This document shows, one piece after another, positions 22,544-45,921 of a stretch of DNA of 64,000 nucleotides (the stretch's first letter is position 1; every line of letters starts with the position of its first letter). Under the pieces are notes generated by a model. The model worked only from the letters and a program-made list of their open reading frames with translations. It ran no database searches and was not told the DNA's origin. The position numbers and the translations under genes are program-made. The stretch comes from Psammoneis japonica (lineage: Eukaryota). Where the stretch lies: assembly GCA_008632985.1 (NCBI GenBank), contig QPGO01000072.1, positions 248,001 through 312,000 on the forward strand, read 5' to 3'.

Positions 22544-23760
22544 CACAAATGTGTGTCTGTCGAAACCATTTGCAGCGAGAAATGATGACAAATCCCCCCG
22601 AACATTTCTTTTCTGTGCAATTGCATTGTGTTTCAATCGAGTCACACAAGGGTTTGTGATCGCGAGTTACGTCAGAGTTCTCATTTTTCCTTTTTTTGGA
22701 AGCAGACAAATGACGTCAGCATGGTGCATTGCTTGCTTGCTCTTTGCTGCAACAAGAAAAGGCACAATGTGCGCCATTGTGGGACATGCCAAACAATGAA
22801 TTGGAATTGACAAGAAATGCAGAAAGAGCACCGCATTGCCACGATCCAAACAAATCCTGCTGCACTCACCACATCTAAGAGCAGTGGCTGAGATGAGCTG
22901 GAGTGCACCCCACACCACCTCTCTGTCTGTTTGCACCTGGATTTGCTCCACAAAATGGTGCTGACCATCTGCAGACACTTCATCACACACCCAAGCTGGG
23001 AGTGCATGACACGTGAAAAACTCCCCTGTGGGGGATGAAAACCTCAAAGGGGCCCAGAGGCCAAGCAACCACCCAAGTGGTGGCTGGCCTGGTGGACCCA
23101 CCATCGTGAAGGTGGCGTGAGCTTTGGGCACCTCATCCTGGCACTCGGGCACTGCAAAAAACATGTTTTTGCACAGACTGCAGTGCTCTGCTTGCCTGTC
23201 AAAATCTTGGCAAAAGGGTTGCTCAAAAGCTCATCATGCTGCCCTCCATTGCCACCACCAGGCACGAGCATTTTTCCAGAGCTGTGGCCACTTTGTGCAT
23301 GACATCATGGCGGTCATTGGCTGCACTGTGGTTGCACCTCTTGTGCAAAACAGATCTGAGGATGGATGCATTTTTCACAATGCACACTTCACAGTTGCAT
23401 GGTGCACAACACAGCGGTGGAGTTGCTCTGTGGGACTTTGGATTTTCAACCTGTTTTGGGTGTTCTCACACTTGGGAGTGACAACTCCACTGCACAGTGG
23501 CGCTGTGTGCAGTGAGCCACACTTTTCTCACCAACTGTGGCTCTCACAGGTGCCAAAGCCTTCATGTTCCATTTCCACTGCCTTGTGGCTCACCTCATCC
23601 CCAACCTGCAAACTGGCCACAGCAACACACCCATTGTTTGGATGGGCGGGAGCGAACAATGTTGTGCCACAGCTTTGTCACTTGCTGCTGCTCCTGCATC
23701 ATTGCCAAGCACACTGCTGTCACAGGAGCTGGTGTCCTTCACCAACTCTGTTGCTCTCCA

Positions 23761-24038
23761 TGCAATGAAGGTGGTCTTCAATGCTGCCAACATCACAAGT
23801 GCAATTTTGATCTCTGTGCAGCAGTGAAAGAGCAGCATGGTTGTTCCTTGTGCCTGTGCCAACTCTGCTCTGTCTTGCAGACAGTCCACAAGAGGCTCCA
23901 CTTGCAATGAAGATCTCCAGCGTTGCCAACATCACAAGTGAAATTTTGATCTGTGCAGCAGTGACAGAGCATGGTCATTCTTTGTGCCTGTGCCAACTCT
24001 GCTCTGTCTCACAGACTGTCCACAAGAGACTCCACTTG
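23761..24038. repeat. Diverged tandem duplication, ~140-bp unit
   Basis: tgcaatgaag...tgccaacatcacaagtg...tgtgcctgtgccaactctgctctgtct...ctccacttg occurs at 23761-23902 and 23903-24038. Confidence 0.8.
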
Positions 24039-24299
24039 ACAGAGGATGGCTCAATGACAACAACAATGGAGGTGGGCACCTGAGCTGGAAAACAGCCAAA
24101 ATCAAAAGCCACATGGGTTCCACTGCAACATCTGTGTGGGCTTTCTGCTGCCTCACAATGTTTGACAGCACACCCAGCAACTCTCATCTAAAAAAGCAAA
24201 GCTCCAGCCCCGCAGCGCTGCAAGCCAAAATCAAGGAGTCAGCCAACAAGACCTGTCAGCACACTGTCTCTTGTTTTGTTGATTCTACCCAAACAGCTC

Positions 24300-27200
24300 A
24301 ATGACCTGACACAAAGGCGCTGAGCCATTGCTTCTTGATTGCCCCTTGTCACGCAACAGCAGCAATGACAAACCTCCTCAATGAGTGCAAAAATAAAGAG
24401 CAAGAAAGTTCCCCAACTCAAACTGTTGCTTGTCAACAACCCAAAGACAAACAAGCTTGTGTCTCCTTCCTCAAGAAAGAAGAGGGAGCAGGCAAAGATT
24501 GACAACAGCAAGAAAGTGTCCCAGCCACTTGTCTCTGCAATGTGCTTGAGGACAACAGCAAAAAAGCAACAATTGCAGCCTTTCTAATTGACTCCACTGA
24601 AAATTTTGATGGCACCAAGTGCTGCGCAACATTTCAAAATGAGCAAAGAACTTGAGGAAATCTTGACCGGGATCTGGCGACAAGACTTTCTGTTGCTCTT
24701 TGGGACTTTGCTGGCATTGTTGTGCAATTGAAAGCCCAAAAGCGCAGAGCATTGCCTTTCCAGCACATCACAGTCACAGAGTGTAAAATGTGGACAACTT
24801 TTGTTGCTTTTGCCATGGGATTCCTGCCTTTCAAATGCTGCCAGGTGTGTGTCTCTCATTTTTTCATCCAGCTGCACAGAATCCCCTCCTCCCAGCAGCC
24901 AAGCTTCTTCCCTCATGTTGCAATGACTTTCCATTGCTCCCATCCATTTTGTTTGGCCAACTCAGAAATTTGTCACATTGACTTTTGGGTTCACGTGGCT
25001 CAATGGTGGGAGGTGTCTGCAAGGAAATGCACAGTGCTCTGGGTGCCATTGACTGTTTGATTGGCAATGCACACATCACATGGGTTGACCTTGAACCCGA
25101 TTTTTTCTCCAAGTCCTTGCAAAATCACTTGCACCACAGCAGAGCTGTGACCAACATGCTGCAAACAGCTCCAGCAACTTCAACACACAGAGGACTCTTT
25201 TCCCCTTCTCCATGACCACATGGAGCCCACACAGGAGGCAGGTGGGGATCAATGCTTGCCAGTGCGGCAACCAACACACTCCTGCAATTTTCATCATGAT
25301 CTGGTCTTTGCCTTCCTGAGGCTCCAAAGTCAATGTCTGCACAAATGTGTTTGGCACATTGGCACTCATTGTGTTGTGCCCTTCCATGGCATCAATGATG
25401 GCTGTCTTTGTTGGTGTTCCTTCCAATGGTGCCATCAGGCCAGCTGATCATCCTTGTCCAGTCATTTTGCAGCTGGTTTTCAGCTGCAAACTGCGGCCCT
25501 TTTGTGCAGCTATCTTGCTTCTCCATCAGGAGCATCAAGGCAATCACAGCCTTGGTCCTCTGAGTCAGAGTCATGTCTTCAACTGACATTGGTGCAAAGC
25601 ACACCCTGTCATGGAGTTGTCCAACCTCCTTCTCTGAGATGTCATGCCCCCTCTGGACAAATGCTTTTGGGTCTTTGTGCAGCAAATGCTGCTGGACAAA
25701 GGAGGTGCTCTTTCCTGATTGGAGTCAGCTGTCAATCTTGCACATGATGAGTTGTGCACACCAGCACCATTGCTGCATCTGCGCTGCACTTGATGTCATC
25801 CTCTGGATTGGGCTCACATTCAGCTGCTTGCAAGTGGGCAACAGCACTCAAGTCTGTTCTGCTTGGGCTTTTCTTTTGTGTTGTCTGCCGCTCCTGAAAA
25901 TCAAACTTTCTTTTCTCTGTGTTCATGTGATTTGATATTGAATGATTTGCCAGTCCTGGTCACTCTGTGTGGGACATGAATTGTCCTCTGACTCTTTGTC
26001 ATCTCCATCTTCTTCTTTGACTTCTTGGCTCTTGTGCTGCTCATTGGAGCTGAGCCTTTCATCAGCAAGGACTTCATTTGTTTCTTCATGCTCATTGTCT
26101 GAGTTTGCTTCACAATCACAGTCTTCATCTTCTGACTTGGTCAGGCAGTTGGCACTGCTGGTGTGTTTGTTTTTGTTTTTGTTTTTTTTTTTCTTCACTT
26201 TTTTATTTGCTGTCACTTTCATCATTGTCCACTCTCCTGCAGTCCAGTCAGCACAATGCAGGTTGTCTCCACATTTGCCTGCAACTTAAATCTTTGACAC
26301 CTTGTGCTGTGGCCATCTTCTTGATTCTTGACTGCTCACATGTGTCAGTCAGGGGCATGGCAGTGCACTTGTGGAGATTGAGAAGCTTGCCCATGTTGTG
26401 CAGGTTCACAGCACAGGGGCCACCCTTGGGAATGTCAAAGCATGGTTGCAGATGCATGCTGTCAATGCTGTGCATGTCAATGGTGGTTGTTGGGTTGTTC
26501 TCAACATGAGACAGGACAAATTCACCAAATGCAAGCTCAAAGTGCGCTTGTTGTCACAGTCAAGGTTTTTTCATTGCACAACAGTGTGTGGACTGCACAT
26601 GTTGAAAATTCCTTCTTGGTGTGGTGCATGTTTGACATGACAACATTCTTTGTCATGGAATGCTCACACATCAACTTGGGCATCATCTTGCATGGCAGGT
26701 GGTGTGCAGTGTCTTGAGTTTGCTCTTTGATTGTCTCAATGCTCTTTTCAACTTCAGGAACATGGTTGCCAGTGTTTGCAGGCATCAGCTCTAAGTTCAT
26801 GCCATCGGCAACTTCTGCCAGCATGTCCTCAAACTTGGGGTCACACTTGACAAAGTCAATCTTGAATGAAGCCATGCTGAACTGATTGTTGGGGGGTTGT
26901 GTCTAGTGCATTGCATGCATTGACATGCTTTTTGGACCTCAGTCTCACACTCTCAATTGGCACTGAATCATCTTGTCTGTTGTGTGCAGTGTCCCAACTC
27001 TGCATGCTTCCACAACATCAATGCAGAGGATTGTGCCTTCTCTCTGCTTCTTGTGTGTGTGTGTGTCCGATGGGACAGCCACAATGTTGCTCCTCTCATG
27101 GGAGCAATGTGCACATTTGGTCTTGCCCTTCAGCAAGTCTGTTGGTTGGCCCCAAAATGCAACCATCCTGTCCACATCTTTGGGCACAATTGACAAGTTT

Positions 27201-28650
27201 TTAACCTGGTTTGAGGTGAAAACAGCTTGAAATTCCTCACACTGGGAACTCCAGCTTTGCAGCACAGTCTGAGTGCTCACCAAGTGCTTGCTGCCTTCCT
27301 CTTGGTGTGGCTTGTGGAACTCTGCTCCACTGTCAGAACCACAGCTCTGGATGCACTCCTGTGCTTCTTGTTGCTCTTCTTCTTTCATTTGCCAGCTGCA
27401 GCCCATGCCATGCAACACTCCTGCTTCAGCCACAGTGGGCCAATTGGTTGGATCTGGTGGTGCATTGATGCCAGTGTTGTCACCAACCACTGTCAAGTGG
27501 TCTCATTCCTGACTCACATCTGCCACATGCAGTGTCTTGTTGATGCTTGCAGTCTGGAGGCATGTGGCTCAGTTTGCTGCAACACAGTGACACACCACAG
27601 CATTGCTCTGGTCACTCTTGTGGGCATGGCTCTGGCTCTTTGTGTTGTTGTCGGACCAGTTGCTGCTGTTGTCATTGTTGCCACCACTGCCATTCTTGCC
27701 ATCTCTTTGCTCATCATTTTTCCTCCTGTGCCAGTTGCAAAGAGTGTCACCAAAAAAGAATCCTGCTGGACTTTCTGTGCTGCTCACTGCACTTGCCTTG
27801 GCAGTCTGTGATGGCTGTGGGTTGCCAAAGGTGTCAATGTAAACTGCAAACTTGTGCAATGACAGGTGCCTGCCAATGCTGAATGATGAATCATGCAAAC
27901 CAAATGATTCACTCCAAAGAGTGAAATGAAAAACAAAGGTGAGAGATTGACAATGGCAAAACTGGTGCAGCAATGAATCACCCAATGAGCCACCTTGTGA
28001 GTCATGAGTTGTGTGTCTCTGTTCTTCAACCCATCCGGGTTTTTCATGATCTCTGTTTGTGCTCTGGCTCCAACAGAATGACAACAAAATCAATGCTCAA
28101 CAAGCAGTCTGGATCATCCAGCACAGCAGCAACAGCAGCCAAGCCTTTTTACAAAACTGTGCCAGCAAGCAATGGGTTCACGAACCTTGCCATTTAATTT
28201 GGAAGATTGGAAAGTCGCTGGCTGTCTTTCCTTGCATGGAATTGCTGTCAAGCAGTCTTCAAGAACATTCCCTTTTGTCCTTTGGGGCAACATTGACAAA
28301 AACTGGCTGTCCAGCAAGGAGAATAGGAAATCTGTGAGCATTTGTTTTTCACTTTTCAATTTCCTTAACAGGCAATCAGCAAGACCTGGGCACCTTTCCA
28401 CCAATCAATGACAACCACCACTGGCACACCAAAAGAAGGCATCGAGATCAACTTCATTGGACAACACCACGTCCGCGCTGAACCACTGTCGGGACAACAC
28501 GGAGTGGAGCACAAACATGTGCTCTGTCTTGATCTTGTCTGCAGCATTCATGAGCCACAATGTCCAGGACCCCATTGCATCCTCGGCCAAAAAGACTTGT
28601 GTGGATTGTCAGATCGGCTCATGCGGGTTGTCTCCAGAAAAGAAACGTTT
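24300..28650 (-). mobile_element. Degenerate Ty1/Copia (diatom CoDi-like) retrotransposon
   Basis: Integrase-like ANTGNHVPEVEKSIETIKE (~26730-26790). RT-like KEVGQLHDR..F.P, LMLLMEKQD, AIIDAMEG..SANVPNTFVQT, GKRVLCV, PCDVCIAN. Gag-like segment at 27.5-28.3 kb. Many frameshifts; LTRs not resolved. Confidence 0.75.
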
Positions 28651-28928: not shown

Positions 28929-29624
28929 TTACTTCAAAATTTCCAACAGTTCCACACGAAAGTCAAGATCGGCATTTGGTGGAATGACATTACCAGCCCC
29001 GCCAGCCCCGTAGCCATAATCGGAGGTAATATGAAGAATAGCTTCCTCTCCAACGCTCATTTGCATAACGCCCTCATCCCACCCTCGAATAACTTGACCT
29101 ATCGAAGAACCGGTGGCAAACATTCATTATGGAAATATAAGCTCACGTCATATTCAAGCTTCGGATGCGCCAGAAACGAAACTTACCGATACCAATGGTA
29201 AACACAAATGGACGCCCACGGTCTGCGTAAAGGAAAAGAGAAAAGGGGAGATGCGCAGGTGAGTATTTACAGACAGACCATCCTTTCTGGGGTACAGACG
29301 GTAGAATTTGCGGGTTGCTTCTTACCGCGGCTCGCGTCAAATTTTTGACCATTCGAAGCCAACGTGCCACTGTCGAAAAAAGAAAGATAGAAGAGATTAG
29401 ACAAAGATTTGAATATGAAAGGTGCGTTCAAGTTGATTTCATATAGAAAAACTTACTGATAATGCATGGAGAGCTTATCGCCTCGCTTGGGAAATGTCTT
29501 CCCGTCTCCTGGTTTAATAACTTCCTAACAATACACGAATGAGTAGGTAAGTGTTCACTGAGGTCAACGCAGTGCAACAAACGATAGAAAACGAGCGGGC
29601 AGATAATACCTTGGTGACTCCCAT
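28929..29624 (-). CDS. FKBP12-type peptidyl-prolyl isomerase (multi-exon)
   Basis: [61 protein letters not shown]. Confidence 0.92.
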
Positions 29625-29876
29625 GATGAGTTAGTGTTTCAGTTTGGCGTTTTTCGATCGCCTTTATTCTCATTCCGCGTTCGTCGTGTCGCGACTGAAA
29701 GATCGGCTTAGTAGTCAACTCTGTAGGAACCTACGTAACGCGAGAATATCTAATATCTTTGGAAGAGAAAGATCCACGTGGATCCTCATCGCGCTTTTAG
29801 CATTGGAGGCACTCTCCATCGTCGATCGACTCACGATGGAGAGTGCATCGGAGGTTCTGACTGAGACTAGTATGTA

Positions 29877-30805
29877 TTAACTTAGTAAAAGCGCTACATT
29901 AAACTTGGAAATCCCTGATTCGTACGGTACCAGACAGTCATCCGGAACATTCAATCCATCACACACAAAATTCTGATTACTGGTATAAACACCATCAAAT
30001 TGTGTCTCTCCAGCACGGTAATCGCCTCCTCGGATGCCAACGTCCAGCTCGCCATTGTTGTTCCGAGGCCTCACACCGTTCCCATAAAGAGTCGATACAC
30101 AATCGAGTTGTTTGAGTAATGGGCAGTAGCAACCTGACAACCACACATTCTTTCCCACGTGTACCATGTCAATCAACTGCAAGCTTGGCGACCTGAGGCA
30201 AAGCTGCTGGTTATAGAAATGGTCACGCTGAGAATTGCTCAAACGGAGGGTTTCAAGGAAGGGAAGGGATTCAACGAGCTCTGTGAATGCCAGAGTATCT
30301 TCTCTCAGCTCTGTAAAAGACAGAGTATCTCTTTGGATTTCACGCCAATCAAAGCTTGTGGTGATGACAAGATGTAATCCGCGAATCTTCATTTGCCCCC
30401 AAGTAGATCTTTCGACTTTGAAGTCATCTCGACCGAACGCGAGCGTAGTCTTGAGATTTACAAGACTTGGACAGATTTCTGCAACCGACCGGTAAAAAGA
30501 ATCGATCGAGGACACTCTCGGCAAAGATCTAGGAAGGCCTAGCTGATCTAAAATGTCGCCAGAAGAGAGAGGCCTAGGCGGTCGCGTTAAATCAAACACA
30601 TCTCGGCCTTGCGCAGTAGTGACTCCTAGCAGCCAAGCACGTTTTGCTATCAGCCCACTCCCCTGTTCATTCCACATCCGCTCGTCATATGTAGCGACGA
30701 GTGTCGTTAGCTTGGATACATCACACATTCGAAGTATGTGTAAGAAAAGTCCCAAGTCGGCAAGTGAGGAGAGTTTCGTGAATTTCAAGCTACGCAATTG
30801 TAGCT
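29877..30805 (-). pseudogene. 3' part of an F-box/LRR-like gene split by the Gypsy insertion
   Basis: LRR-like segments (CPSLVNL, LPFLETLRL, SPSLQLIDM, CPLLKQL). Joins 37420+ in frame once one AGCT TSD copy is removed (…WVTTRKL|QLRSLKF…). Confidence 0.75.
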
Positions 30806-31391
30806 TGTCACGTCGTGCTCATGACCCGACACTTCGAGACGTCATAAAGAACAATAGAGAACTACGGACAGAACCTACACACATCTACGTGAACATACAT
30901 CAAGAGACACATGCATACTACATGAACAATTATCCAACATCTTCCTCCTAAGTAAACAACCGGACACATGCGGAAAGCGATAGTAAACAACTGGACACGT
31001 GTATCACTTCCTAAGTAAATCGAGAAGACATTTCTTAGCCGAACTTCAAGTTCCTTTTCAGCCAATCCGATTCTCACAAGAAAACGGTCGAAACGATGAA
31101 GAGCGAATCGGATCTCTCGATTTTTCCCGTGATACCTTCGGACACCATACGTGACCTCCTCAGAAGTCCCAAGACGTTCCCTTAGACGATATACACTTAA
31201 AGAAGAACCCAGGAACGTTCCTACATAACAAGAACAGAATTTCTCTGGAAAAGAAAGAATCGAAAGAACATTCCGCGAGATCACCGCTCCAGAAATTCAC
31301 TTCATAATTTTACACTTTTATAGTCTCACTTTTCATGAACGACTCTTAAAATCACCACAATCACCCACAATAGGCCTTGTGCCACATGACA
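30806..31391 (+). repeat. Gypsy 5' LTR (TpA-intact)
   Basis: Direct repeat of 36834-37419. Confidence 0.97.
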
Positions 31392-31423
31392 TTTTGATCA
31401 AACAGTGGCGTATCATTATAATA

Positions 31424-33085
31424 ATGCCGCCTCTCAGCATAGTACTGAGCATTCTACTTAAGGCGAAGAAAGCCTACGTACGTAGCCCCCAGTTCGACGG
31501 AACTGAAGAATAGTACTTTAGAGCGTTACCTCAAGATAATACTTATACAGTACAGGAGGACATGACTAGTCAAGCGATTGTGAAGTTATACAAGTCGTAC
31601 CCCCAAGTAGCGGACGACGTTGCGAGCCTAATCAAGTACAAGGTTGCGCCAGACCCGGGAGAACCGGAAGACACGGTGGCATTCTATATCCATCAGTGTG
31701 ATACCTCCATCAAGGAGAAGTACCTAGTCTTTTTAAAAGACTTTAATGAGCTAAGAACGGTCAAGCACTGGACAACAGGACCAGTACTTCATTGCCAGAT
31801 GTTATGCCTAACCAGAGGCTCCATCAAGGACCGATATCAGAGAGCGGTAAGAGCTCTAGTTGAAAATCCAGAAGAACTTACCCCTGAACAGTTTGATACA
31901 GCAGTAGAGACAGCCACTGCTGGACTGCTTCCTCGAGACTCAGCGGCAGTGCAGAAGCAGTACTTGCGCTCCATACGCAAGCCAAGAGAAACTACCTTCA
32001 TTGAATTCACCTCCAGAATTTCGGAAATCAATGAGCTAGTACCCTACATGAGAGGCTCTGCAGAAGAGAGAGCCCCTCTCACGGACCAAGAGTTAACTTA
32101 TGCAACAGAGCATGCTGTGCCGGATGATTGGCGAGAGAGATTCCAACTATCCGTCGGACACAGAGGTGAGTATGGTATGGCAGACTTGGAGACATACTAT
32201 TCCACCATTGAATCCTTCCTACAGAAGAAGAAGGCCCAACAAGAGAGAAGGTTGTCAAATAACCAACGGCGATTCCAGAGACGTATCCCCACTCACGGCT
32301 ACCGAACCGCATACGGACATGGAGGCGACCGAGCGACACGACCGAGCAATAATAACAATGACAACGCCGGAGCTCCTCCCAACCAACCACATAGATATCC
32401 CACTCGATACCAAGCCAACTTACAGCGTGATAGGAACCGTCCTCAAGGCTATGGTCAACGGAGAGGACGTACCCGAACGAATCGGCAAGAAATACGTGCC
32501 GTACACGAGCCAGAAGAAGCTCTACCAGTCCAGAACCCGGACAACAGTATAGACTCAGCCCCAGCTGAACAACTGGAACAACTCAGCATAAGAGATGATT
32601 CTGAACCTGAATCTTATGAACAAGAAGACGGACTTGAGATACCAGAAGACGATACGAGCTACTCTTATGAAGAATCAGACGGAGAATATGATACTTACGT
32701 GGAAGAGAACTATTGCGTTCTGTTGCCAGAAGACTTTGAGCTGCAACAGAGACAGAGACCTCCCATGGACCCAGCAGAAACAACTGATGCATCCAGCATG
32801 CCGGAATTTGTGCCGCACAGCGGATCAACATCGTCAGACAGCGATGATTTGTGGAGTACCGCTAGTAGTATGTCAACAGTATCGTCGACAACCTTGTCTA
32901 TGGACGAGCTGTCATCTTTTGGAGAAGATGCCGATGACGAGTATGAGGCTACAGCAGACAGCGCGGATGAGTGCGCATCTCTGACATCATCAATTTTCGA
33001 GCATGACAACAGCACGGACGCCCAGGAGTTGATAGAAGCATTATATCCAGATGGAATGGACGATTGCGACTACGTAGGGCCCTAG
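31424..33085 (+). CDS. Gypsy gag with acidic C-terminal region (in-frame TAG at 31511)
   Basis: ORF 31562-33085 with QKQYLRSIRKPR..FTSRISEINELVPY..AVPDDWRERF. The upstream in-frame ATG at 31424 is followed by a premature stop. Confidence 0.75.
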
Positions 33086-36000
33086 TGTTCCCTCATGGGG
33101 GCATATATCCTACGAGAAGGAACTTATGTGTTCCAGGTGACCCAGACGAATTCGAAGAAGAAGAAGGACATTCGAAAACGTCCGAAGACACCGAACCCTA
33201 CATATATGAGCAATGTCGCTCACTTTCTCATCGAGCAACTGCCTCGAAGACGAAGCGAGCTGTATCGGCAGACGAACTCATGAATAGCGAGTCCGATAAG
33301 AAAATGTCACCGGCTCCAGAGTCCGATACCGATGAAGAGAGTATCTATATGACGAATGAACTTATGCCAGCCGTGGCGCCTGAGCCACAACCAGCAGCAC
33401 GAATGCCTGAACCAGACCCTCAGAGTGATGGTTACGAGCATTTGAGTGCATCCAGTGATCATGATTTCTTTTACTGTGAACCTGGCACAGTGCACCTAGA
33501 TGATGAAGAGCATCGTACTTGGTTCCACCAAGAAGAAGAAGTCTTTGGAGATGGCATGTCTGACCATCTCAGAGAACAAGAAGAGGAGCAAAGCAACAAC
33601 AAGAAGCCGAGAAGACACGCAGCACGAAAGCCTCAAAAATGTGAGTGGAAGAACCCCGGATGCATCGTGCGACTTCAACTACTCGATCCAGTTGATGGGA
33701 CTCAAGACAAAAGCAACAATGTTCTGCTCGCCTTGCTCGACAGCGGTGGCAGTCGAACAATGACAAAGAGAGATGTGCTCTCAAAAGAAGCACTGGATGA
33801 GGCTGCCTTGGCACCAACAAGATGGGAGACCTTGTTTGCGCAGACCCATCAGACAACTCATGTCGCACTCACTCGTTGTTGATTCCTTGACACATCCTCA
33901 CACAGACAATTCGATTTATGCTTTTACATTTCATCATTGCAAGGAATCTATGATGCTGTTGTAGGACGAGATGTTCTGTTCAAGCTTGGAATGAAGCTTG
34001 ATTTCCAGGAAAAAGTCATTGCTTGGGATGACTTGTCCTTTCCGATGAGACATCCCGAGGATTTTTGGCACCGACCGACGACGCAAGAAGAGCTCATGGC
34101 GGCTCGTAAGGCCAAAGCCATTCGCCCAAATGACTGTAGTCCCACAGAGGACTTGCAAGAGTGTGTGCCCGAGCACTCATCGAGAGAGCAAGGTGAAGCT
34201 CTTGTTGCTTTGCCAGAAGACTTCTCCAGTCTCACGCAAGGAGAGCTCGGACAATGTGCCAAGCAACCACCGGTCAACATTGAGCTTAAGCCCGGCACCG
34301 AGCCCATTGTGTGCCGACCTTGCAGCATGCCCCAGATCAACTGCAACATGGCAAAAGGAGAAGCAGAGAGATTGTGCCGAGCAGGAGTTCTGAGAAGGAT
34401 CTCAGACTCAGCTTGGGGATTTCCCTCAATGTTCACACCGAAGAAAGGTGGTGATTGCCGATTTGTCACCGACTTTCGGCTGTTAAATCAACGCATGCAA
34501 CGACGCCCATGGCCTCCACCTTTGACACCAACCATGCTCTGAAAGCTGCATGGCTGTGCTTGTGTTGCAGCGATCGATTTGAATGTGGGATTTTTTACGA
34601 TGCGGATCAGCCAGAAGAGTCAGCAGTGTCTGACTGCTGTGCTGCCGTTCGGCAAACATGCTTGTTGCATGTTGCCAATGGGACTTGCACCAGCCCCAGA
34701 TGTGTTCCAAGAAGTCATGACTGACTTGCTGGGACACTTGGAATTCGTTCTGATTTTTATCGACGACTTGTTGATCATTGGCAAGGGATCCTTTGATGAT
34801 CACCTCGCCCAATTGCGCGAAGCATTTGTGCTTTTGAATGATGCAGGCTTTAGAGCAAACTTGCGAAAAACTTTCTTTTGCGCTCTAGAAACGGAGCACC
34901 TGGGGTTTGTCATTGCTAGAAACGGAATCAAACCGCAACCCAAGAAAGTCAATGCGATTGTGAATTTAGTTTCGCCCAAAACAAAGAAAGAACTCAGAGG
35001 TTTCATTGGAATGATGAACTTCTGTCGCGAGATGTGGCGACTTCGTGCCCATCTGTTGGCACCTCTTTCCAGTGTGACCTCGAAAGCGGTCAAGTTCGAG
35101 TGGAAACCCGAACACGAGCAAGCGTTTCAAGAAATTAAGAGACGGATCTCTACCGAGACGCTTCTTGCCTGCCCTGATTTCAATGAGATGTTCTACATCT
35201 ACACCGATGCTTCGAAATGCCAGCTGGGAAGCGTTGTCATTCAAGACAAGTGCCCGACAGCATTCCACTCCCGCAAACTCTCCGACACGCAAAAAAGACA
35301 TCCAGTTGTCGAACAAGAACCACTGTCGACAGTTATGACGCTACGAGAGTGTCGTGACATCCCATTGGGTCATAGGATCACGATCTGTGCGGATCACAAG
35401 AATCTGACCTTTGCAAATTTCAAGTCAGACCGCGTGTGTCGTTGGCGACTGATCGTTGAGGAATTTGGTCCCACGATTCTTTACCTGCCGGGAGCAAAAA
35501 ATGTGCTCGCGGATTTCTTATCACGTGCCGCGACCACGACTAGCGACCCAGAGACACCAGCTGCAGATCCAACGCTGGAAGAGTGTTTCGCCTTTGAATG
35601 CGACGATGACACTCATTGTCCTATCTCGTTTGACACGATTGTTGAAGCACAGCAAGATGATGCTACGTGCAAAAAAGCATTGCAACTTGCTCGAACCGAC
35701 CCGAGTCGGAAAGAATTGTCTGACTACAGTTGCATGGTGCAGGATGGACACCTGCGCCTGGTCCTTTTTAAGGACAAGATTGTTGTCCCTACAACTTTAC
35801 AAGCACCTCCATTGAACTGGTGTCATGTCAATTTACGCCATCCAGGTATCCAACGAATGGAAAAGACCCTCAGGCAGTGCTGTTGTTGGCAAGGTTTGAC
35901 CCGAGACGTCAAGACCAAGGCAGACCAATGCCAGACCTGTCTACAGTCAAAAGAGAACCGCAGAGTGTATGGAAAAACACCTCTTAAGGACATGCGAGCC

Positions 36001-36810
36001 CTTGAGATCGACCCCTGGTTGCAGGCAGCAGTCGACACTGTCGGACCGATTACCTTTGCTGCTGGCACCGGCATCAACCAACGAAGTTTGACGTTAACCG
36101 CCCTCACGATGGCAGATCTAGCTACTCATCATTTTGGCATGGAGCAGATCTCCACAGTCTCAGCTCTGGAAGCTGCCAGAGCATTTGACCAAGCGTGGTC
36201 ATGCAAATTTCCGCGCCCAGTCTGTTGCACACACGACAACGGTGCGGAATTTACAGGTGTTGAATTTCAAGAACTGCCAGTTTCTTATGGGATTAAGTCT
36301 AAACCTGTGACAGTGCGGAACCCACAGGCGAATTCACTGCTTGAACGGACCCACGATGTTTCATGGAGCTGCATGCGGGCCCAACAAGTCGATGATCCCG
36401 ATGCATTTAATCAACCGAATCCATGGAATACGACAACAGCCTCAGCAACTTGGGCGATAAATTCGACGGCACATGCCATCATGCAAGCCTCTGCCGGCCA
36501 ACTAGCTTTTGGAAGAGATGTGATCCTTCCCTTGCAATGCAACGTCCACTGGCCGACCATTTGTGCTCGCCGCCGACAACAAGCGCAAGCAGATGACGTG
36601 CGTAAAAACTCTCGGCGACTCGACCATGACTTCAAAGTGGGAGACCTTGTTTCTCTCCGAAACGACAACCCTCGTCGATCCAAACTCGCCTTACGCCGAC
36701 TTGGCCCATGCGAGACACATGAAGTGAAGTCCAATGGCACCGTCATCATCCAAAAAGGAAATTACCTTGAGACCGTCAATGCGCGGCATCTCGTTCCTTT
36801 CTCTCCCTGA
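33064..36810 (+). pseudogene. Gypsy pol (protease, RT, RNase H, integrase); frameshifted and Tyr->Cys/His mutated
   Basis: ALLDSGGS, WGFP..PKKGG..RFVTDFR, LPMG, FIDD, TDAS, SRKL, DHKNL, NVLADFLSR, H-PG..C..C, HDNGAEF, NPQANSLLE. Confidence 0.93.
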
Positions 36811-36833
36811 TGCGATTCATTGGAGGAGGCGCG

Positions 36834-37419
36834 TGTCACGTCGTGCTCATGACCTGACACTTCGAGACGTCACAAAGAACAACAGAGAACTGCGGACAGA
36901 ACCTGCACACATCTACGTGAACATGCATCAAGAGACACATGCACACCACATGAACAATTGTCCAACATCTTCCTCCTAAGTAAACAACCGGACACATGCG
37001 GAAAGCGACAGCAAACAACTGGACACGTGTGTCACTTCCCAAGTAAATCGAGAAGACATTTCTTAGCCGAACTTCAAGTTCCTTTTCAGCCAATCCGATT
37101 CTCACAAGAAAACGGTCGAAACGATGAAGAGCGAATCGGATCTCTCGATTTTTCCCGTGATGCCTTCGGACACCATACGTGACCTCCTCAGAAGTCCCAA
37201 GACGTTCCCTCAGACGACACACACTTAAAGAAGAACCCAGGAACGTTCCTACATGACGAGAACAGAATTTCTCTGGAAAAGAAAGAATCGAAAGAACATT
37301 CCGCGAGATCACCGCTCCAGAAATTCACTTCATAATTTTACACTTTTATGGTCTCACTTTTCATGAACGACTCTTAAAATCACCACAATCACCCACAACA
37401 GGCCTTGTGCCACATGACA
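36834..37419 (+). repeat. Gypsy 3' LTR (TpA-eroded)
   Basis: Direct repeat of 30806-31391 with 21 substitutions (manual count). Confidence 0.97.
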
Positions 37420-37949
37420 AGCTTGCGTGTTGTGACCCATGGCACACACTTCAACCAATCAAAAAGAACAAAATCAGCATCAAGATGACCAAGAATGGCT
37501 GGCAGGCAACTTTTGCACAACTTGTTGAATCGCTTGCAGACGAGTGCAATGGTGCAGTGAAGGCTTTCTGCTTCAGGAAGAGTCAGGAGTGCATCAACAG
37601 AATCTGGGCTGCGGATTTTCACGCCTAAACCATCACTCTCTTCTGAAGGAGCAGACACTGTGGGCTCACCAGCACCAAGAAACGACAGAGTGTGAACCAA
37701 ACAGCAATCTTTAAGGTCCGAAATTGACAGCTTTTGTGGAGTTGCGATTTGCCTCCACGCATTGTTGCGCCACTTTACTTTCTCTTCTGAGTCGTCCTCT
37801 CCTCCAACTGCTGCAGTTGCCCAGCCTCCATGATTCACCCGTTTGCTTGCAACATGGGCAATCTGTTCATTGTAAACCCGCTTCTTGCCTTTGCCCCGTA
37901 AGAGAATCACGGGCGCCGATTTCTGAGAATGCGAGCTGTGCACCTTCAT
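37420..37949 (-). pseudogene. 5' part of the F-box/LRR-like gene (F-box motif), TpA-depleted
   Basis: LSISDLKDCCLVHTLSFLG...IALVCKRFNKLC. Continues in frame into 30805. Start codon uncertain. Confidence 0.7.
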
Positions 37950-38120
37950 CACATTCTCTTTGACGCGCCCACCTGTTCTTCTGTGCTTTTGTTTTTGAGC
38001 TTCTCTGGCCAATCCAGACCTTTCACAACATGTGTGGAGCCGCGCTTGAACAGATGAGAGAGTGTTCGAGAGGATGACAGCCAACAATCGGTGTCAACAC
38101 AGCCTCCGCTCTCCGCTGCG

Positions 38121-41100
38121 AGTTGACGTCTGTCAATCCACCTGTCGACTGCGCGCAATCACGCGCATCTGTTTTCAAATTCCGCCATCAAAACTCTGCT
38201 CGATGTTGCAGTCATAATTTTCAGTCAACGACTTTTGCAACAACAACAGCTGCTAGTTTACAACCTTGAGCATCAGCTCTTTCGACATCTGCAGTCAGTC
38301 ATCTCAAGCCGTCGATCGTCCATTTCAAATGGAATCGCCGTTCATCGATTCGACAGACCTCTCCAGTCTGTCGACGATGACACCACGTGCAGCTGAGCCT
38401 CCCTCCTTTGTCGACAGGCTCGTACGCATTTTCCCGCCACTGGAACCAATCCATGGAGCTGGAATCATCATCGTCAAGCGTCGTCATTTTCGGCCGTTGC
38501 GACACCAAACCCGGGCTGAGTCGTTTCGAACTCTCCAAGTCCATGCCAAGTCAAGACCTGCCTCTCACGCTGTTCGACGACGACACTCTCGTTGCCGATT
38601 GATTGTTGAGCTTCTGTGGCAGTCTCCCAATGATGCTGCATCGAGAGCTTCATTTTGCCGTTTGTGCCCCAAACTCCGCGCAGCTTCAGCACCAAGTTCT
38701 GCGCATTGACTCAAATCCACCATGGCCGGAACGCCGTCAAAGACTCCGTCCAAGACCCCCAAGGGCACCAAGACTCTGCAACAGAGGAGTCAGACTCCTC
38801 AACCTTCTCGAACCAGCAATGGGACACCTGCTGCTCCCGCTGGCAAGAACAGCAGTTCCACCACAGGAGCCAATCAACCTCCGCCTCCTCCAAGGTGTGG
38901 AGGGATCCATCCAGAATGTGGGTGATGCATGGGTGGTTCTCCGTTGGATGACGACTGCAAGCCCAAGCCACCTCGTTCCTGCCGCTCAACCAACCAGTCT
39001 CACGACAAGAAGATTCTGCTGCACATCGAACGTGCTCTTCACGAAGCTTGAGACGGAACACTCGTCGTCAAGCTTGACGGAAACCTCGAGCTCACTGACA
39101 TGACCTCCAACGAGCTCGACCAATCCCACTTCGTTCAAGCTATCCGCACCCTTGTCAAGGAGCATGGCTTGGAGAACTTCTTCGCTGTGAAGCTCGAGAA
39201 GAAGGTTGTGTCACCATTCGACCATCTCCACTCTTTTGCGGTCGACGAGGTGATTGCCGAGTGCCTTCATCACGCCAACGTCGCCAAGGACTTCACTGCC
39301 TGTGACGATTGCGAGCACAACGATGTCGCCCTCTCCCGATTGGTTGTTGAGTCTAGAATCTCACACCGATTCCACGAGAAGATCAAGGTCCAATTCGGAC
39401 ATGACGATCTCTTTGAGTGCCACCCCGGTCAAGTCTGTTTGATGATGGCTTTGGATGCTTGCAATGCATCTGCCGTGCATGACGTTGCCCAAGCCACCGA
39501 GGACCTCGATGCTCCATTGCTTGCATCCCACCCGGGTGAGGACGTGACTGAGTTCGCTGCCGAAGCTCTCCGTCTCACCAAGCTGCTCCAAGCCGGGTGT
39601 GCATCACCTGTCGACCTCGGGTCGAGCATTCTCAAGAAGTGCCAAAAGACCTCATGTGAGGCACTCAATCGCAAGATTTACACCAAGTTGGACAAGGTGT
39701 CGACCATGGAACACAAGCATCACCTTGGCGATCCCAAGGCGATCACCGCGGACTCCGACTGTGATGAACTCGGGCCCACAGCGTGCACCTCCTTTTTGCA
39801 GAAGGAGCATCGCTTCTGCGTCACCGACAAGGATTGGCCCAGACTTTCCACCAAGCTCCCTCAGAGCAACAACGCTTCCAAGACCAGAAAAGGGGCCTGC
39901 AATGCATGTGGTGCTCCGGACCACTGGGCCAACGATCCCAAGTGTCCCAAGTGTGCCGAACATCAGAAGCACAAGAAAGAGAAACGTGAGCAGCGTCGAC
40001 AGAACAGTCGCAAGGACAACCCAACGGCACCACCTGCCACTGCACCGCCTCCTGCGTCTTCCGTTACGGTCGACACTGTCCCTGCTGACAAACAAGCCAA
40101 ACTCAAGGAGTTGCTCACCAACGAGCCCCATCGTCACACCCGTCCGGCGGCCCTGTCCAAACCCGTCGTGAACAAGTGCGGTTCGACCACGCATTTTTGT
40201 GGAAAGTGCACTTGCAAGCACACCGGCATTCGGGGGATGTACACGAATCACAAGGAGTCAGATCATGTTCGCAAACCACCGAAACAAGAACCACCTGCGG
40301 CCAATCTTACCTCCATTGACGACCCAGATTCGGGCGTCCCACCTGGGCCACCCGCTCAGACTGCTGCAGACCCAACCAATGCGCCCGAGCCCTCTCCTGA
40401 TGAGGATGAGCTTGTTTGGACTGGATTCCATTGTTGTGTGGTCAAGGACTCGTCTCCTCCCACCCCGTCTGTCGCACGAGTCTCCTGCAAACCCGCTTCC
40501 GCGTCTCAGAGGGAGCGCCTGCCGGTTGCAGTCGAGACCGTCGAACCTGAAGATGCTGACGACTTCAGCGATCACTTCGATGCATGTGACGATCTCTCTT
40601 GGGACGATTCCATTGTTGTGTTTCCACCCACGACTGCTCCTTCATCCAGTGTCCCTGCTTCGGGCACTCCGGCTCCTGCGGCAGAGTTCTTCTTCGATGC
40701 CGAGTCCGGACCCGAACCCGTGCCGGATCCACCGGTTCCCCAAGCTCACCATCTGTTGCTGTGGGATCTCCTCAAGCTCCCGCTCTTTTGGATCTCTGCA
40801 ATGCTTTGGGAAGGTCTCCTGTGGCTCGTCTGCTCCCAGGATGATCCCCCCCCTCCTCCCCGCCGTGAACGTCGCCTCAAGCACCGCCCTGCGCTGTGTC
40901 GCTGCCCCTGTCGTTGGGGCGTGATTGCGTGCGCTGTTGCGCTTTGGCATTTTGTGTGCGGCGGCGCTGTCCCTCCCCACCCCTTTCAATCATTGGACCG
41001 CCTCTCTTCTCAAACATATGAAGTTGTCTCTGCTCTCGATGAGCGCGTCGATCTGTCGCCCGGTGCGTTCGTCCAGTGCCATGCTGTCAAGGTCAGACAA

Positions 41101-44100
41101 TTCAAATGTGAGTTGGCGCGCTCAGAGGGAGACAAGCAAGACAAAAGCCACTCTGCCTTTTGAACTTTCTGAGTTGATTGACAGGAGTGACAATGACGAT
41201 TTCTTTGATGCGTGCACGGAGCTCCCCGTCCATGCGGAGCACTTCTTCGATGCTGATGCCTTCTGCGAGTCTGACTGCTCGAGCCCGGATGTCTTCGGCA
41301 TTGCTGACTTGTGTCACGCCCGCCACTTTGTCGACTGTGCCAATGCTCCGGAGCTCGCTACGGAGGATCCATCGGCTTCACCAGCTTTGCCGACCTCCGC
41401 TGCACTTCGTGCCATTTCCGGGGAGACCCAACTTTCGCGTCTCGCCGCTGATCCCCAGGCCCTCTTCCACATCAGACCAAGTGATCTCCAGGTTGTTTTT
41501 GACACTGGTGCCTCGCAGGCCATCACTCCTGACAAGAAAGATTTTGATGGTCCGATCAAGTGCTGCCGGACCCCGCTCCGCCTCGGCAGCATGGCTGAAG
41601 GCATGTGCATCACTGGTGAGGGCACCGTCACGTGGACCTTTCAAGCCAGAGAGGGTCACGAAATTGCTGTCCAGCTCCGCACCTTTCTCGTCCCGTCCTC
41701 CAAGGTTCGCCCACTTTCTCCACAACGTCTCTTCCATGCAGACGGTGTCAAAGGACATTTTTGGGGTGACAGTGAGATTTTCAAGGTTTGTTTTGCAGAC
41801 ACGCCGGAGTCAACGCTCGAGTGCGACGAGCGCTCCCACTCACCGGTTGGCTGCACGACTCTCGGTTCCATCCATGCAACACAAGTCAATTTGAGCGCCA
41901 TCAGCGACCCGGATGACCTCAATCTGTCTGCTGGACAGAAGCTTCTCAATGAATGGCATCATGCGCGCTTTGGGCACTTAAATTTTCCCAATATCCAAGC
42001 TCCACTCTGCGGCCATCCGTTCGAGGCCATGAAATTCAAGGCAGCATCCAAATGCGACATTCCAAAATGCGGTGCATGCGAACATGCCAAGGCTCATCGC
42101 CGTTCTTTGAAGTCTGCCATTCACAAATCCGACCCCAAGCACGATGGAGCGTTGAAGGCTGACCATCTCAATCCCGGCCAGTCCGTCAGCGTCGACCATT
42201 TCGAATCGCGTCTCAAGGGCCGTGCCTGTGATTCATGCGGCAAACCGTCCTCCCAGCAGCATGTTGGCGGCTGCATCTTTGTCGACCACTCCTCTGGTCA
42301 CATCCACGTTGAACACCAAGTCGGTTTCTCCGCTGTCGAGACTGTTCAAGCGAAACAGGCATGTGAGACCATGGCAATGGGACACGGCGTGATCGTCCAA
42401 ACTTGCCTCACCGACGGTGGCGCTTTCAAGGCCAACCAGTTCGTTTCCCACATCCATGACTCCCAGCAACGCATGCACTTTTGTGGCACCAACACTCATC
42501 ATCAAAATGGTGTTGCCGAACGCTCCATTTGGTCCACATCCAATGTGGCTCGCACCATGATCCTCCATGCTTCGATTCACTGGTGTGGCGGCATCGACAG
42601 CTCTCTGTGGCCCATGGCAGTGCACTGTGCTGCCCACATCTACAACGCCACTCCCGGCACTCATGGTCTGTGTCCCGCCAACATCTTTGCTGGCTCCACC
42701 GTCCCACGCCACTGCCTCCGCAATCTCCATGTTTGGGGTTGTCCCGTCTGCGTCTTGGATCCCAAATTACAGGAGGGCAAGAAACTTCCCCATTGGCAGC
42801 CGCGTTCTCGGCGTGGTGTCTTTCTTGGACTCAGCAACATTCATGCCAGTGAGGTGCCGTTGGTCCTCAATCTCAATGCTGGCTCCATCACTCCCCAGTG
42901 CCACATCATGTTTGACAATCTCTTCACCACGGTTGCTTCGATCGCGAGGGAGAGCGAACCGCCAGATCACTGGGAAGAATTGTGGTTGGAGAACACCACT
43001 CAAATTCCCTTGGACTTGACCGATGGACCGTTGTTCCTTCAAGACGACTGGCTCACTCCTGCTGAACTTGAACAGAAACGACGACATGAGACTGGGAAAC
43101 GCAATGTTCGCGCTGCACGTCAACAGCAGCAGAACTTGCCAAAACCCACTGAGAAACCAAAACCCACAGGGGATCCTTTGCCATCTCCAAATCCACCACC
43201 GTCTGCACCATCGACACCAACAACTGCAGTTGATCCATCACCGACACCACCGCCACAAACACTGTCGCTTCAAAACCCATCATCGCCGACGCCTCCAGTT
43301 GACGATCCTCCACCTTCAGTCGCACGTCCACCGTCTGCTGCTGGCAATGGTCCGGGCACGTCAGTCCCATCCACGACTGCTCCAGTCCCACCTGAACCCT
43401 CATCCACGACTGAGACACCAGGGGTGCGCCGATCCCAACGGTCGAACAAGGGTACGCGCACAACTGCTCGTTTCGCCGACGAAGTGCACCTGGCTTCTGT
43501 TGTCCCTGACGATGTTGGAGGACAACAGGCTCAGCTTGCCCATTTGGCTGAGATCCAGACTGACTGTGATTTGGGTGTTTTGGATGTTCAGGCCCGCGGA
43601 TCTACGCCGCCAAGGTCAAACGCGATGCGGATGATCCGAACATTCGCGAGGCTCTCTCGGGTGATTTTGCCAAGCAACACATTGAAGCCATGAAGACGGA
43701 GGCATCTGCTCTTGTCCATCGTAAAACGTGGCAATTTGTGAAACAGGAGAAGTCAATGAATGTGCTCAAGTCCATGTGGGCATTCAAGTTGAAACGATTG
43801 CTGGATGGCACGCCGCTCAAGTTCAAAGCGCGATTTTGTGTCCGAGGAGATCTGCAAAAAGAGGGAGTTGACTGCTTCGAGACCTGCGCTCCAGTGGTCC
43901 AATGGTCGACCATCTGTCTCGCATTGAGTGCTGTCCTGCAAGAAGGATGGACCACCCATCAGGTCGATTGCACCAACGCTTTTGCGCAGGCCGAGATGAC
44001 GGAAGACGTTTGTGTCGAACCACCCAAGTGTTTCGCTCCCAGTTCAGGATCCAATGTTGTCTTGAAGCTGCTCAAGAGTCTCTGCAGTCTCAAGCAAGCT

Positions 44101-45470
44101 CCCAAGTGCTTCTTTGATGAGCTGCGTGAAGGATCATTGGAACGAGGATGGACCCAGTCGCAAGTCGACCCGTGCCCATTTTTCAAGGACGGTGTGATTT
44201 GTGTGGTCTGTGTTGATGACACCATCCTCGCTGGCAAGAATGGAGCCGCTCTAGAAAGTGAGATCAAGGCTCCAGGCATCCAAGACGATGAACAACGCCA
44301 TGCATTCGAGTTGCGAAACAAGGGAGAAGTTGGCGACTTCCTCGGTGTCAAGATTTTGCAAAACCGGACCCAAGGAATTCTTCCTTGCCCAGCCTGGACT
44401 TGTTGACAAGGCCCTCAAGACAGCTGGCATGGAAGATCGCCGCTCTTCTCCCACTCCCAGTGCTGCCTCTCCATGTCATGCGGATGAAGAGGGAGCCGAA
44501 TTCGACGAGAACTGGGACTGCCGTTCCGTCATCAGCATGTTGATGTGTCTGTCATCATCCAACTCCCGACCTGATGTCTGCTGTGCCACGCATCAAGCCG
44601 CCCGCTTCTCACATGCTCCCAAGCATTCTCGTGCGATTGCGGTGAAGCGCATTCTACGATGCTTGCAAGGCACCAAGGACAAGGGACTCTGTCTGTGCCC
44701 TGGCGACAACGAACGTGTTGATTGTTTCGTTGACGCCGACTTCGCCGGCCTCTGCGGTCACGAAGACACTCAAGATCCGGTCAGCGTCAAGTCCCGCACC
44801 GGACATGTCATCTTGTGTCGTGATTGTCCCATTTTATGGGTTTCCAAGCTACAGACGCAAGTGGCACTCTCCACTGTGGAGGCCGAGTGCCTTGCTCTGT
44901 CGGCTGCGATGTGCGACCTGACTCCGATTCGTGAAATTTTGAAGGAATTCAAGTGCCATGTTTTCGGTCTCATGGATTACAAGACCCCTGCCACCACCAA
45001 GTCCAAGGCCTTTTCAGATGTAAAGGATGGTGCGATCCCTTCTTCAGCAGTTTATGAAGACAATCAGGCATGCCTCAAGTTTGCGAAAATGGCCAAGTTG
45101 TCTCCACGTGCCAAACACATTGGCGTTCCCTGTCATTGGTTCCGCGCCAAGGTCGAGGCTCTTGAGATCCGGATTGAGCCTGTGGGAACTGATTCCCAGT
45201 TAGCTGATCAATTTGCGAAGGGACTTATTGCTGACAAGTTTGAATCTGGTCGGTTGAGTCTCTCAGGCTGGCAGCTCTACGGTTGAGAGGGAGAGTTGAC
45301 GTCTGTCAATCTACCTGTCGACTGCGCGCAATCGCGCGCTTCAATTTTCAAATTCCGCCATCAAAACTCTGCTCGACATTGCAGTCACAATTTTCAGTCA
45401 ACGACTTTTGCAACAACAACAGCTACTAGTTTACAACCTTGAGCATCAGCTCTTTCGATATCTACAGTTA
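38121..45470 (+). mobile_element. Full-length Ty1/Copia LTR retrotransposon (~7.35 kb)
   Basis: 177-bp LTRs at 38121-38297 and 45294-45470, PPT GAGAGGGAG, domain order gag-PR-IN-RT-RH. TSD not clean (TGCG vs TACA). Confidence 0.95.
38329..45286 (+). pseudogene. Copia gag-pol polyprotein, frameshifted, with Tyr almost entirely replaced by Cys/His
   Basis: CNACGAPDHW zinc knuckle, VFDTGAS, HARFGH..CGACEHAK, SVDHF, HHQNGVAER, KFKARFCVRGDLQ, LKQAP, VVCVDD, FVDADFAG, STVEAEC, YEDN, ADQFAKGL. Confidence 0.93.
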
Positions 45471-45921
45471 TACATCGGCACAACAAGTCTGCGTTCCGTT
45501 TTGTTTCTGCGATCTGGGATCGGCGAGTGTGTGTGAAGTTTTTGTGAGTTTGGAGTTTGAAATTTCGGATTTTCTTTGGTTTTGGCAACTCCAGCGAAAA
45601 AACGAAATTTCACCAAATTTTGTTAAAAGAGCAAAAAAGAGCAGAAAAAAGATGAATAGGATCCCTACGACTGAAACAAGAGCCCGGATATTTCTTTTTA
45701 CTGTAGAGTTGCCAGTTGCCATGCAAACAGTTGCGTACATGTTGTAGAAATCCTTGTGTTGTAGTTTGTTCTTTTCTCTTCAGTTGTTGTATTACATAAT
45801 ACATTATCATCCTACGCAGAAGCTCATATAGGACCAGAGAGCGCGGCTTGGCTCCATCCCACGTTAGCACCAGTAAAAATAACTAGCTAGGAGCACTTTA
45901 TAGAATGGGCCCAGAGTCAAG

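Follow-up and report, generated by a model that had tools for sequence, protein, structure and literature searches.

In Bigelowiella natans, integrated giant-virus and virophage DNA has been reported to undergo hypermutation at TpA dinucleotides (Mettrop et al., bioRxiv 10.64898/2026.01.13.699255). In a single-copy, transcriptionally silent viral insert of this organism the A:T to G:C changes fall at TpA only, at about 1000 times the background, and genes depleted of TpA are enriched in domains of reverse transcriptase and transposase; since that target is single-copy and silent, the pairing of repeats is not required. A full-text literature search for TpA-directed hypermutation, in diatoms or elsewhere, returned this preprint only. 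Two fungal systems with repeat-induced point mutation (RIP) are also close: the heterochromatin-related RIP of Neurospora crassa, which involves DIM-5/HP1/DIM-2 (Gladyshev and Kleckner, bioRxiv 10.1101/115501), and the leakage of RIP from repeats to neighbouring single-copy genes in Leptosphaeria maculans (Van de Wouw et al. 2010, PMC2973834). Here we describe a locus of Psammoneis japonica, within a window of 64,000 nucleotides (contig QPGO01000072.1 of assembly GCA_008632985.1, positions 248,001 to 312,000; all coordinates below are those of the window), at which a host gene is split by a Gypsy long terminal repeat (LTR) retrotransposon; the 5' part of the gene, enclosed between this Gypsy and a Copia element, is nearly devoid of TA, whereas the 3' part is not.

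It is probable, in our judgement, that a cis-acting process turning TpA into TpG or CpA has worked on one domain of about 12 kb of the transposon-bearing haplotype, in which the 5' part of the gene is a passenger. That mutation depends on where in the chromosome the DNA lies, and not on repeat identity alone, is supported by the observations set out below, and spreading along a chromatin domain, as read from the sequence, is plausible.

The locus resembles the B. natans system in several respects. As there, A:T to G:C changes fall almost only at TpA (19 of the 21 differences between the two Gypsy LTRs, the other two being at CpG), both strands are struck (11 CA and 8 TG in the 3' LTR; CA at 1.49 and TG at 1.54 times expectation in the 5' part of the gene), and the changes are confined to discrete regions and lie far above the background, with 19 of 31 TA lost against two other changes in 586 bp. 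It differs in the organism and in the targets, which here are LTR retrotransposons and a piece of a host gene, and in the depth of the depletion, the observed/expected ratio (o/e) of TA being 0.03-0.11 against 0.45 for the viral insert. The evidence is comparative here, and comes from mutation-accumulation lines in B. natans. In the part of the preprint covered by a term search, flanks, boundaries and heterochromatin are not mentioned.

With the Neurospora RIP that depends on DIM-5/HP1/DIM-2 the locus shares the mutation of unique DNA between repeats, the reaching of nearby non-repetitive DNA and a link to silent chromatin; unlike it, the change is A:T to G:C at TpA and not C to T, the two flanking repeats are unrelated to each other, and one of two identical LTRs escapes fully. 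The likeness to the leakage in L. maculans lies in a single-copy gene that is mutated the more, the closer it lies to mutated repeats and in the coexistence of mutated and unmutated alleles; that leakage, however, converts CpA to TpA in a fungal premeiotic process, whereas the gene described here had already been broken by an insertion. RIP in its C to T form (mainly CpA to TpA, with a gain of TA) does not fit this locus, where TA is lost and Tyr codons have given way to Cys and His codons. Nor does a RIP that covers the shared homology in both copies agree with a loss of 19 against 0 TA in two LTRs and with an edge that lies inside an element.

One host gene in two states

The gene lies on the minus strand, and contigs from two runs (X1 and X2) of a public sample were compared with the window. 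Once the Gypsy element and one copy of its AGCT target-site duplication (together 30802-37419) are removed, the joined reverse complements of 37420-38093 and 29877-30801 make a frame of 533 codons with a terminal stop only, in which WVTTRKL is followed directly by QLRSLKF; an in-frame rejoining with this junction had been put forward in the preliminary description, and the joint is also carried by contigs of X1 and X2. The openness of this frame says little in itself, because by the genetic code a change of TA to TG or CA would never turn a sense codon into a stop, which would also account for the long open reading frames (ORFs) in all mutated tracts.

The 3' part of this F-box-like/leucine-rich repeat-like gene (29877-30801, with the stop codon at 29877-29879) lies outside the mutated domain and is TA-normal. 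The stretch 29877-30805 holds 42 TA in 929 bp, with o/e ratios of 0.64 for TA, 1.18 for CA, 1.02 for TG and 0.95 for CG, whereas 37420-38120 holds 5 TA in 701 bp, with ratios of 0.11, 1.49, 1.54 and 0.62, respectively (Fisher P = 1.6e-6 for the TA contrast); the rough counts of 40 and 5 first given for the two parts are thereby made exact. All five TA fall within the 5' coding part (37420-37949, minus strand), whose start codon is placed at 37947-37949 by family alignment, and the upstream region between the ATG and the Copia element (37950-38119, minus strand) has none. The TA ratio of the 5' part is below the minimum of 0.255 found in 513 overlapping 700-bp control windows taken from TA-normal parts. 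Within the gene, the step falls at the insertion site to within about 100 bp, with 10 TA in 30601-30800 and none in 37401-37600. The abnormal state at this locus is a TA o/e of 0.03-0.11 together with CA and TG at 1.5-2.

An allele without the insertion

X1 reads through introns at 29.1-29.5 kb and looks like DNA. X2, which bears the label 'DNA?', has a contig at a word depth of 610 in 29000-29670 with three skips of 87-103 bp bordered by CT..AC (29096-29185, 29222-29326 and 29369-29457, minus strand), by which X2 is probably RNA; the skips resemble introns of a highly expressed minus-strand gene situated just left of the host gene.

One contig of each run passes directly from 30801 to 37420, skipping 6618 letters, and six letters at the joint fit both sides, as is expected from AGCT plus TG when an empty site keeps one AGCT copy. 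An empty-site allele exists and, judging from its presence in X2, seems to be expressed. Its divergence from the window is unevenly distributed. The X2 contig differs at 25 of 490 positions in 37420-37911 (5.1%) and at 5 of 732 in 30070-30801, a range over which an X1 contig differs at a single position of 732, which is not TA-type; the contrast between 5.1% in the 5' part and 0.14-0.7% in the 3' part has P = 1.3e-6. From the TA level of the 3' part a loss of 17-24 TA is expected in the 5' part, a figure that the 25 allelic differences fit. A comparison with an uninterrupted allele had been expected to show TA changes in the 5' part only; such an allele has now been found and its divergence is concentrated in that part, while the kinds of bases that differ, TA against TG or CA, are a prediction. 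X2 has no contig over 32969-36937, and its sole contig over the 5' part of the gene is the divergent one, which is no evidence of silence.

Just upstream of the ATG, the 60 bp at 37969-38030 are replaced by AT in one X1 contig (depth 35.9), which may be an indel polymorphism between alleles.

Two identical repeats with different fates

The Gypsy element lies on the plus strand between the two copies of AGCT (30802-30805 and 37420-37423). Its 5' LTR (30806-31391) is unmutated, with 31 TA, and its 3' LTR (36834-37419) is partly mutated, with 12 TA left, a loss of 61%. The LTRs of one element are identical at insertion. In this pair 21 of 586 sites differ, and at all 19 sites of TA type it is the 5' LTR that holds the TA and the 3' LTR that has CA or TG, no difference running in the reverse direction. 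Two equal repeats have therefore met different fates, and the mutation occurred in place, after insertion, and removes TA. The empty site is still segregating, yet the 3' LTR has already lost 61% of its TA, from which the process must run at least two orders of magnitude above the background, in keeping with the roughly 1000-fold rate measured in B. natans.

Assignment to Ty3/Gypsy rests on the 586-bp LTR pair, the AGCT duplication and the order reverse transcriptase (RT)-RNase H-integrase. A gag-like ORF (31514-33085, plus strand, 523 aa), for which no Pfam match was obtained, is TA-normal with 5.3% Tyr, and is followed by a pol frame (33007-36810, plus strand) of 1267 codons with two internal TGA codons (33880-33882 and 34540-34542), in which Tyr is reduced to 0.9%. 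RT, RNase H and integrase are all within 34543-36810, as the Pfam matches RVT_1, RT_RNaseH_2, Integrase_H2C2 and rve in that order, and no protease domain was found in the element even at E <= 5. Position 33880 reads C in all 10 X1 contigs, which indicates that CGA became TGA, at a CpG site, in the window's copy.

An X2 contig of 386 letters (depth 6.1) covers 31685-32070 in the gag-like ORF with two differences; the window's Gypsy, or a near-identical sibling, may be transcribed.

The TA-poor domain and its edges

The depletion forms one contiguous domain at about 33.4-45.4 kb (~12 kb); it starts within the Gypsy, 4 kb short of its right end, continues through the 5' part of the gene and includes the whole of the Copia. 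Counted in 200-bp bins, TA drops at 33400 from about 10 to 1-4, stays at 0-6 through the domain and recovers at 45400-45600. At the left edge the last dense TA stands at 33363, the next stretch to 33516 has four more and TA is sparse beyond, so that the step is about 150 bp wide and lies near 33400-33520, inside a single continuous pol frame; the right edge is in the Copia 3' LTR. The TA o/e is 0.85 in the left part of the Gypsy, 0.26 in its right part and 0.08 in the Copia, and the loss amounts to about 95% in the Copia, about 83% in the 700-bp host segment and 61% in the Gypsy 3' LTR.

The Copia-type element (38120-45476, plus strand; LTRs at 38120-38303 and 45293-45476) is almost without TA, with 29 in 38120-45290. 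Its 184-bp LTR pair and an integrase SH3-like match that precedes RVT_2 (43570-44406) suggest a Ty1/Copia element; no target-site duplication was found for it. The motif of RT is usually YVDD. In this element, whose Tyr content is 0.1-0.4%, it reads CVDD. The LTRs differ at 14 of 184 positions; at five sites a TA kept by the 3' LTR stands against CA or TG in the 5' LTR, at one site it is the 5' LTR that holds the TA, and at one further site TG in one LTR faces CA in its partner, as would result from one ancestral TA that was struck independently in each. About 3-5 of the differences in 184 bp are of neither TA nor CpG type, against 0 in 586 bp in the Gypsy pair, which makes the Copia the older of the two elements.

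These edges modify what was first proposed for the locus. The TA-poor tract starts not at the junction of gene and Gypsy but inside the Gypsy; and the junctions of gene and transposon as such do not account for the half-mutated gene, as the domain covers no more of the Gypsy than its right 4 kb and nothing to the right of the Copia. The wider proposal, that the DNA is mutated according to its position, is supported by the unequal LTRs, the edge within the pol frame, the sequencing depth, the empty-site allele and the contexts of the surviving TA.

A recombinant haplotype, in which a crossover or conversion near 33.4 kb joined the unmutated left side to the mutated right side of two Gypsy-bearing alleles, would produce a step as narrow as the one seen, and the left side, including 30070-30801, is indeed nearly identical to the other allele (one difference in 732); moreover, the B. 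natans lines differ in hypermutation activity, so that differently mutated alleles could coexist. We nevertheless regard such an event as very unlikely. The six other domain edges in the window are all equally sharp at 500-bp resolution and call for no special event, the recombination requires an unmutated Gypsy-bearing allele of an insertion that is very young (two non-TA differences in the 586-bp LTR), and the unique host DNA would still have been mutated.

Copy number and homology

In X1 the single-copy left flank has a summed word depth of 52.6, which the two parts of the gene resemble with 55-63 (3' part) and 75 (5' part), against 535-1362 in the Gypsy and 370-1020 in the Copia; such a depth is not a copy number, and serves here only to tell that a sequence is no high-copy repeat. 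Within the window the host segment has no second copy; recurrence is limited to the LTR pairs of both elements and to two old, short repeats. The description of the segment as unique host DNA accordingly holds in so far as it is not high-copy (55-75 against 370-1362) and does not recur in the window, while one extra copy of the block is compatible with the depths.

This bears on a targeting by homology as in fungal RIP, for which the 33.4-45.4 kb block would have a second copy by recent segmental duplication, or the pol and Copia sequences would pair, the linker between them being mutated by leakage. Precedents exist in the single-copy linker between repeats that is mutated through DIM-5/HP1/DIM-2 in Neurospora and in the single-copy effector genes beside repeats into which RIP leaks in Leptosphaeria; a duplicated block would give sharp edges unrelated to the ends of the transposons, the depths of 75 and 55 in the two parts of the gene point the same way, and the X1 depth peak of 1024-1362, over 33536-35236, coincides with the most TA-depleted stretch of the Gypsy. 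Such targeting appears unlikely all the same, as the 5' LTR and the gag-like region are equally deep in X1 (535-894 against 631-1362) without any TA loss, identical LTRs differ by 19 to 0, the loss is uneven along the block (about 95%, 83% and 61%), the hypermutated insert of B. natans is single-copy, and neither a joint nor a loose end of a second copy is present among those listed, beyond which there are 128 loose ends and one joint.

Context of the surviving sites and the CpG signal

The TA that survive in 33550-45290 are enriched 3.4-fold in the context TTAA and 2-fold in GTAA/TTAC, and depleted to about 0.25-0.44-fold in ATAT, ATAC/GTAT and ATAG; the mutator has a flanking-base bias. When TTAA and GTAA/TTAC are treated as a resistant class, 5 of the 12 TA retained in the Gypsy 3' LTR belong to it, compared with 1 of the 19 mutated (P = 0.02). 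Of the 5 TA that remain in the 5' part of the gene 4 fall into it, where unmutated DNA has 16.5% (binomial P = 0.003), the class having been defined on a range that includes these TA (5 of 97); in the 3' part the figure is 12 of 42.

A second signal concerns CpG. Among the differences listed between window and contigs, which are 40 of 1044 and a biased sample, 14 of 22 in the domain have TG or CA in the window where all contigs have CG, and none is the reverse; in the left part of the Gypsy the window keeps CG in 4 of 16 and one is the reverse. This is a hint that the domain may be cytosine-methylated.

Proposed mechanism and its weighing

The process would rewrite TpA to TpG or CpA, that is A:T to G:C on either strand, in cis. 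The domain on which it acts would hold the older Copia, the unique host DNA that adjoins it over 700 bp, and 4 kb at the right end of a Gypsy that is very young and still polymorphic. It could be a silent domain that was seeded at the Copia and from there extends leftwards for 4.7 kb, across the 5' part of the gene and on into the Gypsy. What spared the 3' part would be the Gypsy insertion itself, which shifted it 6.6 kb away, past the left edge of the domain. The domain may consist of silent, probably cytosine-methylated chromatin that recruits or admits the mutator, whose chemistry could be adenine deamination, as has been proposed for B. natans; the lost activity of the gene, or its place between two transposons, may have been the trigger that let the domain close over it. 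In its strongest form, which we advance tentatively and at somewhat less than even confidence, this is a mutator whose targets are set by chromatin state rather than by sequence or copy number, and which would act on one allele only in a diploid nucleus, at least two orders of magnitude above background, and engulf unique host DNA once its gene is silenced or enclosed.

Several observations weigh against a positional process of this kind. None of the 40 differences listed, of 1044, falls in 37420-38120, where the 25 allelic differences are predicted to be TA against TG or CA. An X2 contig of 204 letters over the C-terminal coding end (29891-30099), which abuts the contig of the allele at 30070, has 15 differences and 5 gaps; it may be the transcript of a paralogue or a divergent allele, and in the latter case allelic divergence would be patchy and the contrast between the two parts of the gene weaker. 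The depth of 75 against 55 is compatible with a second copy of the block, and the comparison of ancestral residues across the family proteins is weak, with TA-type changes making up 4 of 25 deviations in the 5' part and 1 of 37 in the 3' part. The Gypsy shows no smooth gradient of TA density away from the Copia (0.9 per 100 bp in 33.5-35.1 kb, 2.1 in 35.1-37.4 kb), and nothing has spread into the right flank of the Copia, where 12-15 TA per 200 bp are found from 45600. Finally, no TA is left in the first 206 bp of the 5' part, whereas 6 of 10 survive in the 200 bp at the end of the adjoining LTR, so that a part of the loss may predate the Gypsy.

The last point leads to another account, by which the 5' part was already poor in TA when the Gypsy came in, natively or by an older spreading from the Copia in both alleles, the Gypsy having inserted at, or been targeted to, the edge of the tract, and the 25 differences being ordinary polymorphism. 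The greater age of the Copia, the stronger depletion of the 5' part than of the adjoining LTR end, the 7% divergence of the possibly allelic contig at 29891-30099 and the finding that no contig joint skips the Copia among the joints listed (15 of 16) are all in its favour. It is nonetheless highly improbable in our view: the Gypsy must then have inserted no more than about 100 bp from the edge (10 TA against 0 TA), the number of allelic differences matches the expected TA loss, the surviving TA carry the context signature of the mutator, and at conserved columns of the protein family three V to A changes and one Y to C are found.

The protein family of the gene

The host gene belongs, as a complete member, to a family of proteins of 450-500 aa, with 15 matches at E <= 1e-3 among 1.84 billion representatives; the relatives are 28-49% identical as proteins, the best 46-49%, and the 3' part aligns to the C-terminal two thirds. 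At conserved family columns the 5' part deviates in 25 of 84, of which 4 are explained by TA loss, and the 3' part in 37 of 118, of which 1 is so explained; the four in the 5' part are the three V to A (GTA to GCA) and the Y to C, each at a column that 8-10 of 10-11 relatives conserve.

The gene had been called an F-box gene, a label that now looks weak. Pfam F-box PF00646 reaches only E 0.032 in the window protein, at 14.6 bits against a cut-off of 20.5, and 9 of the 12 aligned family members match it at E <= 1, also below threshold (best E 4.8e-4); no Pfam match at E <= 0.01 was obtained for either part of the gene, and a protein Atlas comparison gave weak leads of leucine-rich repeat type only. 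A search for homologous proteins found no match with the 3' part (near lengths) or the 5' part (longer lengths), from which the protein of the unbroken allele is absent from the collection searched, and a search of metagenome contigs with the family alignment, in which 110 stretches matched the pattern, yielded no relatives.

Other parts of the window

Across this eukaryotic window ordinary gene ORFs, for example Patched/sterol-sensing, ABC transporter, patatin, oxidoreductase and kinase ORFs, are interleaved with TA-poor tracts. Kilobase-scale tracts nearly free of TA, with CA and TG doubled, lie at 7.5-10.5, 20-28.6, 33.4-45.4 and 54.4-63 kb, and in the older of the TA-free tracts CG has been lost as well. 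In the tract 20000-28600, within which a DUF7640 ORF is found at 21899-22666, the CG o/e declines from about 0.6 (20-21.5 kb) to 0.03 (27-28 kb) while TA is near zero throughout, by which TA loss seems to run ahead of CpG loss.

Implications

The locus offers three internal controls within 16 kb, namely identical LTRs with different fates, an element with a sharp internal edge, and a gene of which one half is mutated and the other is not, whose unbroken allele occurs in the same sample. Taken together, these controls speak for position, rather than repeat identity, as what determines which DNA is mutated. A targeted A:T to G:C mutation at TpA appears, in the literature searched, in one 2026 preprint only, in the covered portion of which the choice of target is left unexplained, and what the present locus adds are these internal controls and the unbroken allele. 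What defines the domain thereby becomes a question for allele-resolved maps of methylation and histones. The process can damage host genes beside transposons without creating stop codons, and checks based on ORFs would miss such damage. If the mutator is indeed aimed by chromatin, this heterozygous locus, with an unbroken, expressed allele opposite a broken, hypermutated one, would be a natural experiment for the recruitment of a DNA adenine mutator.

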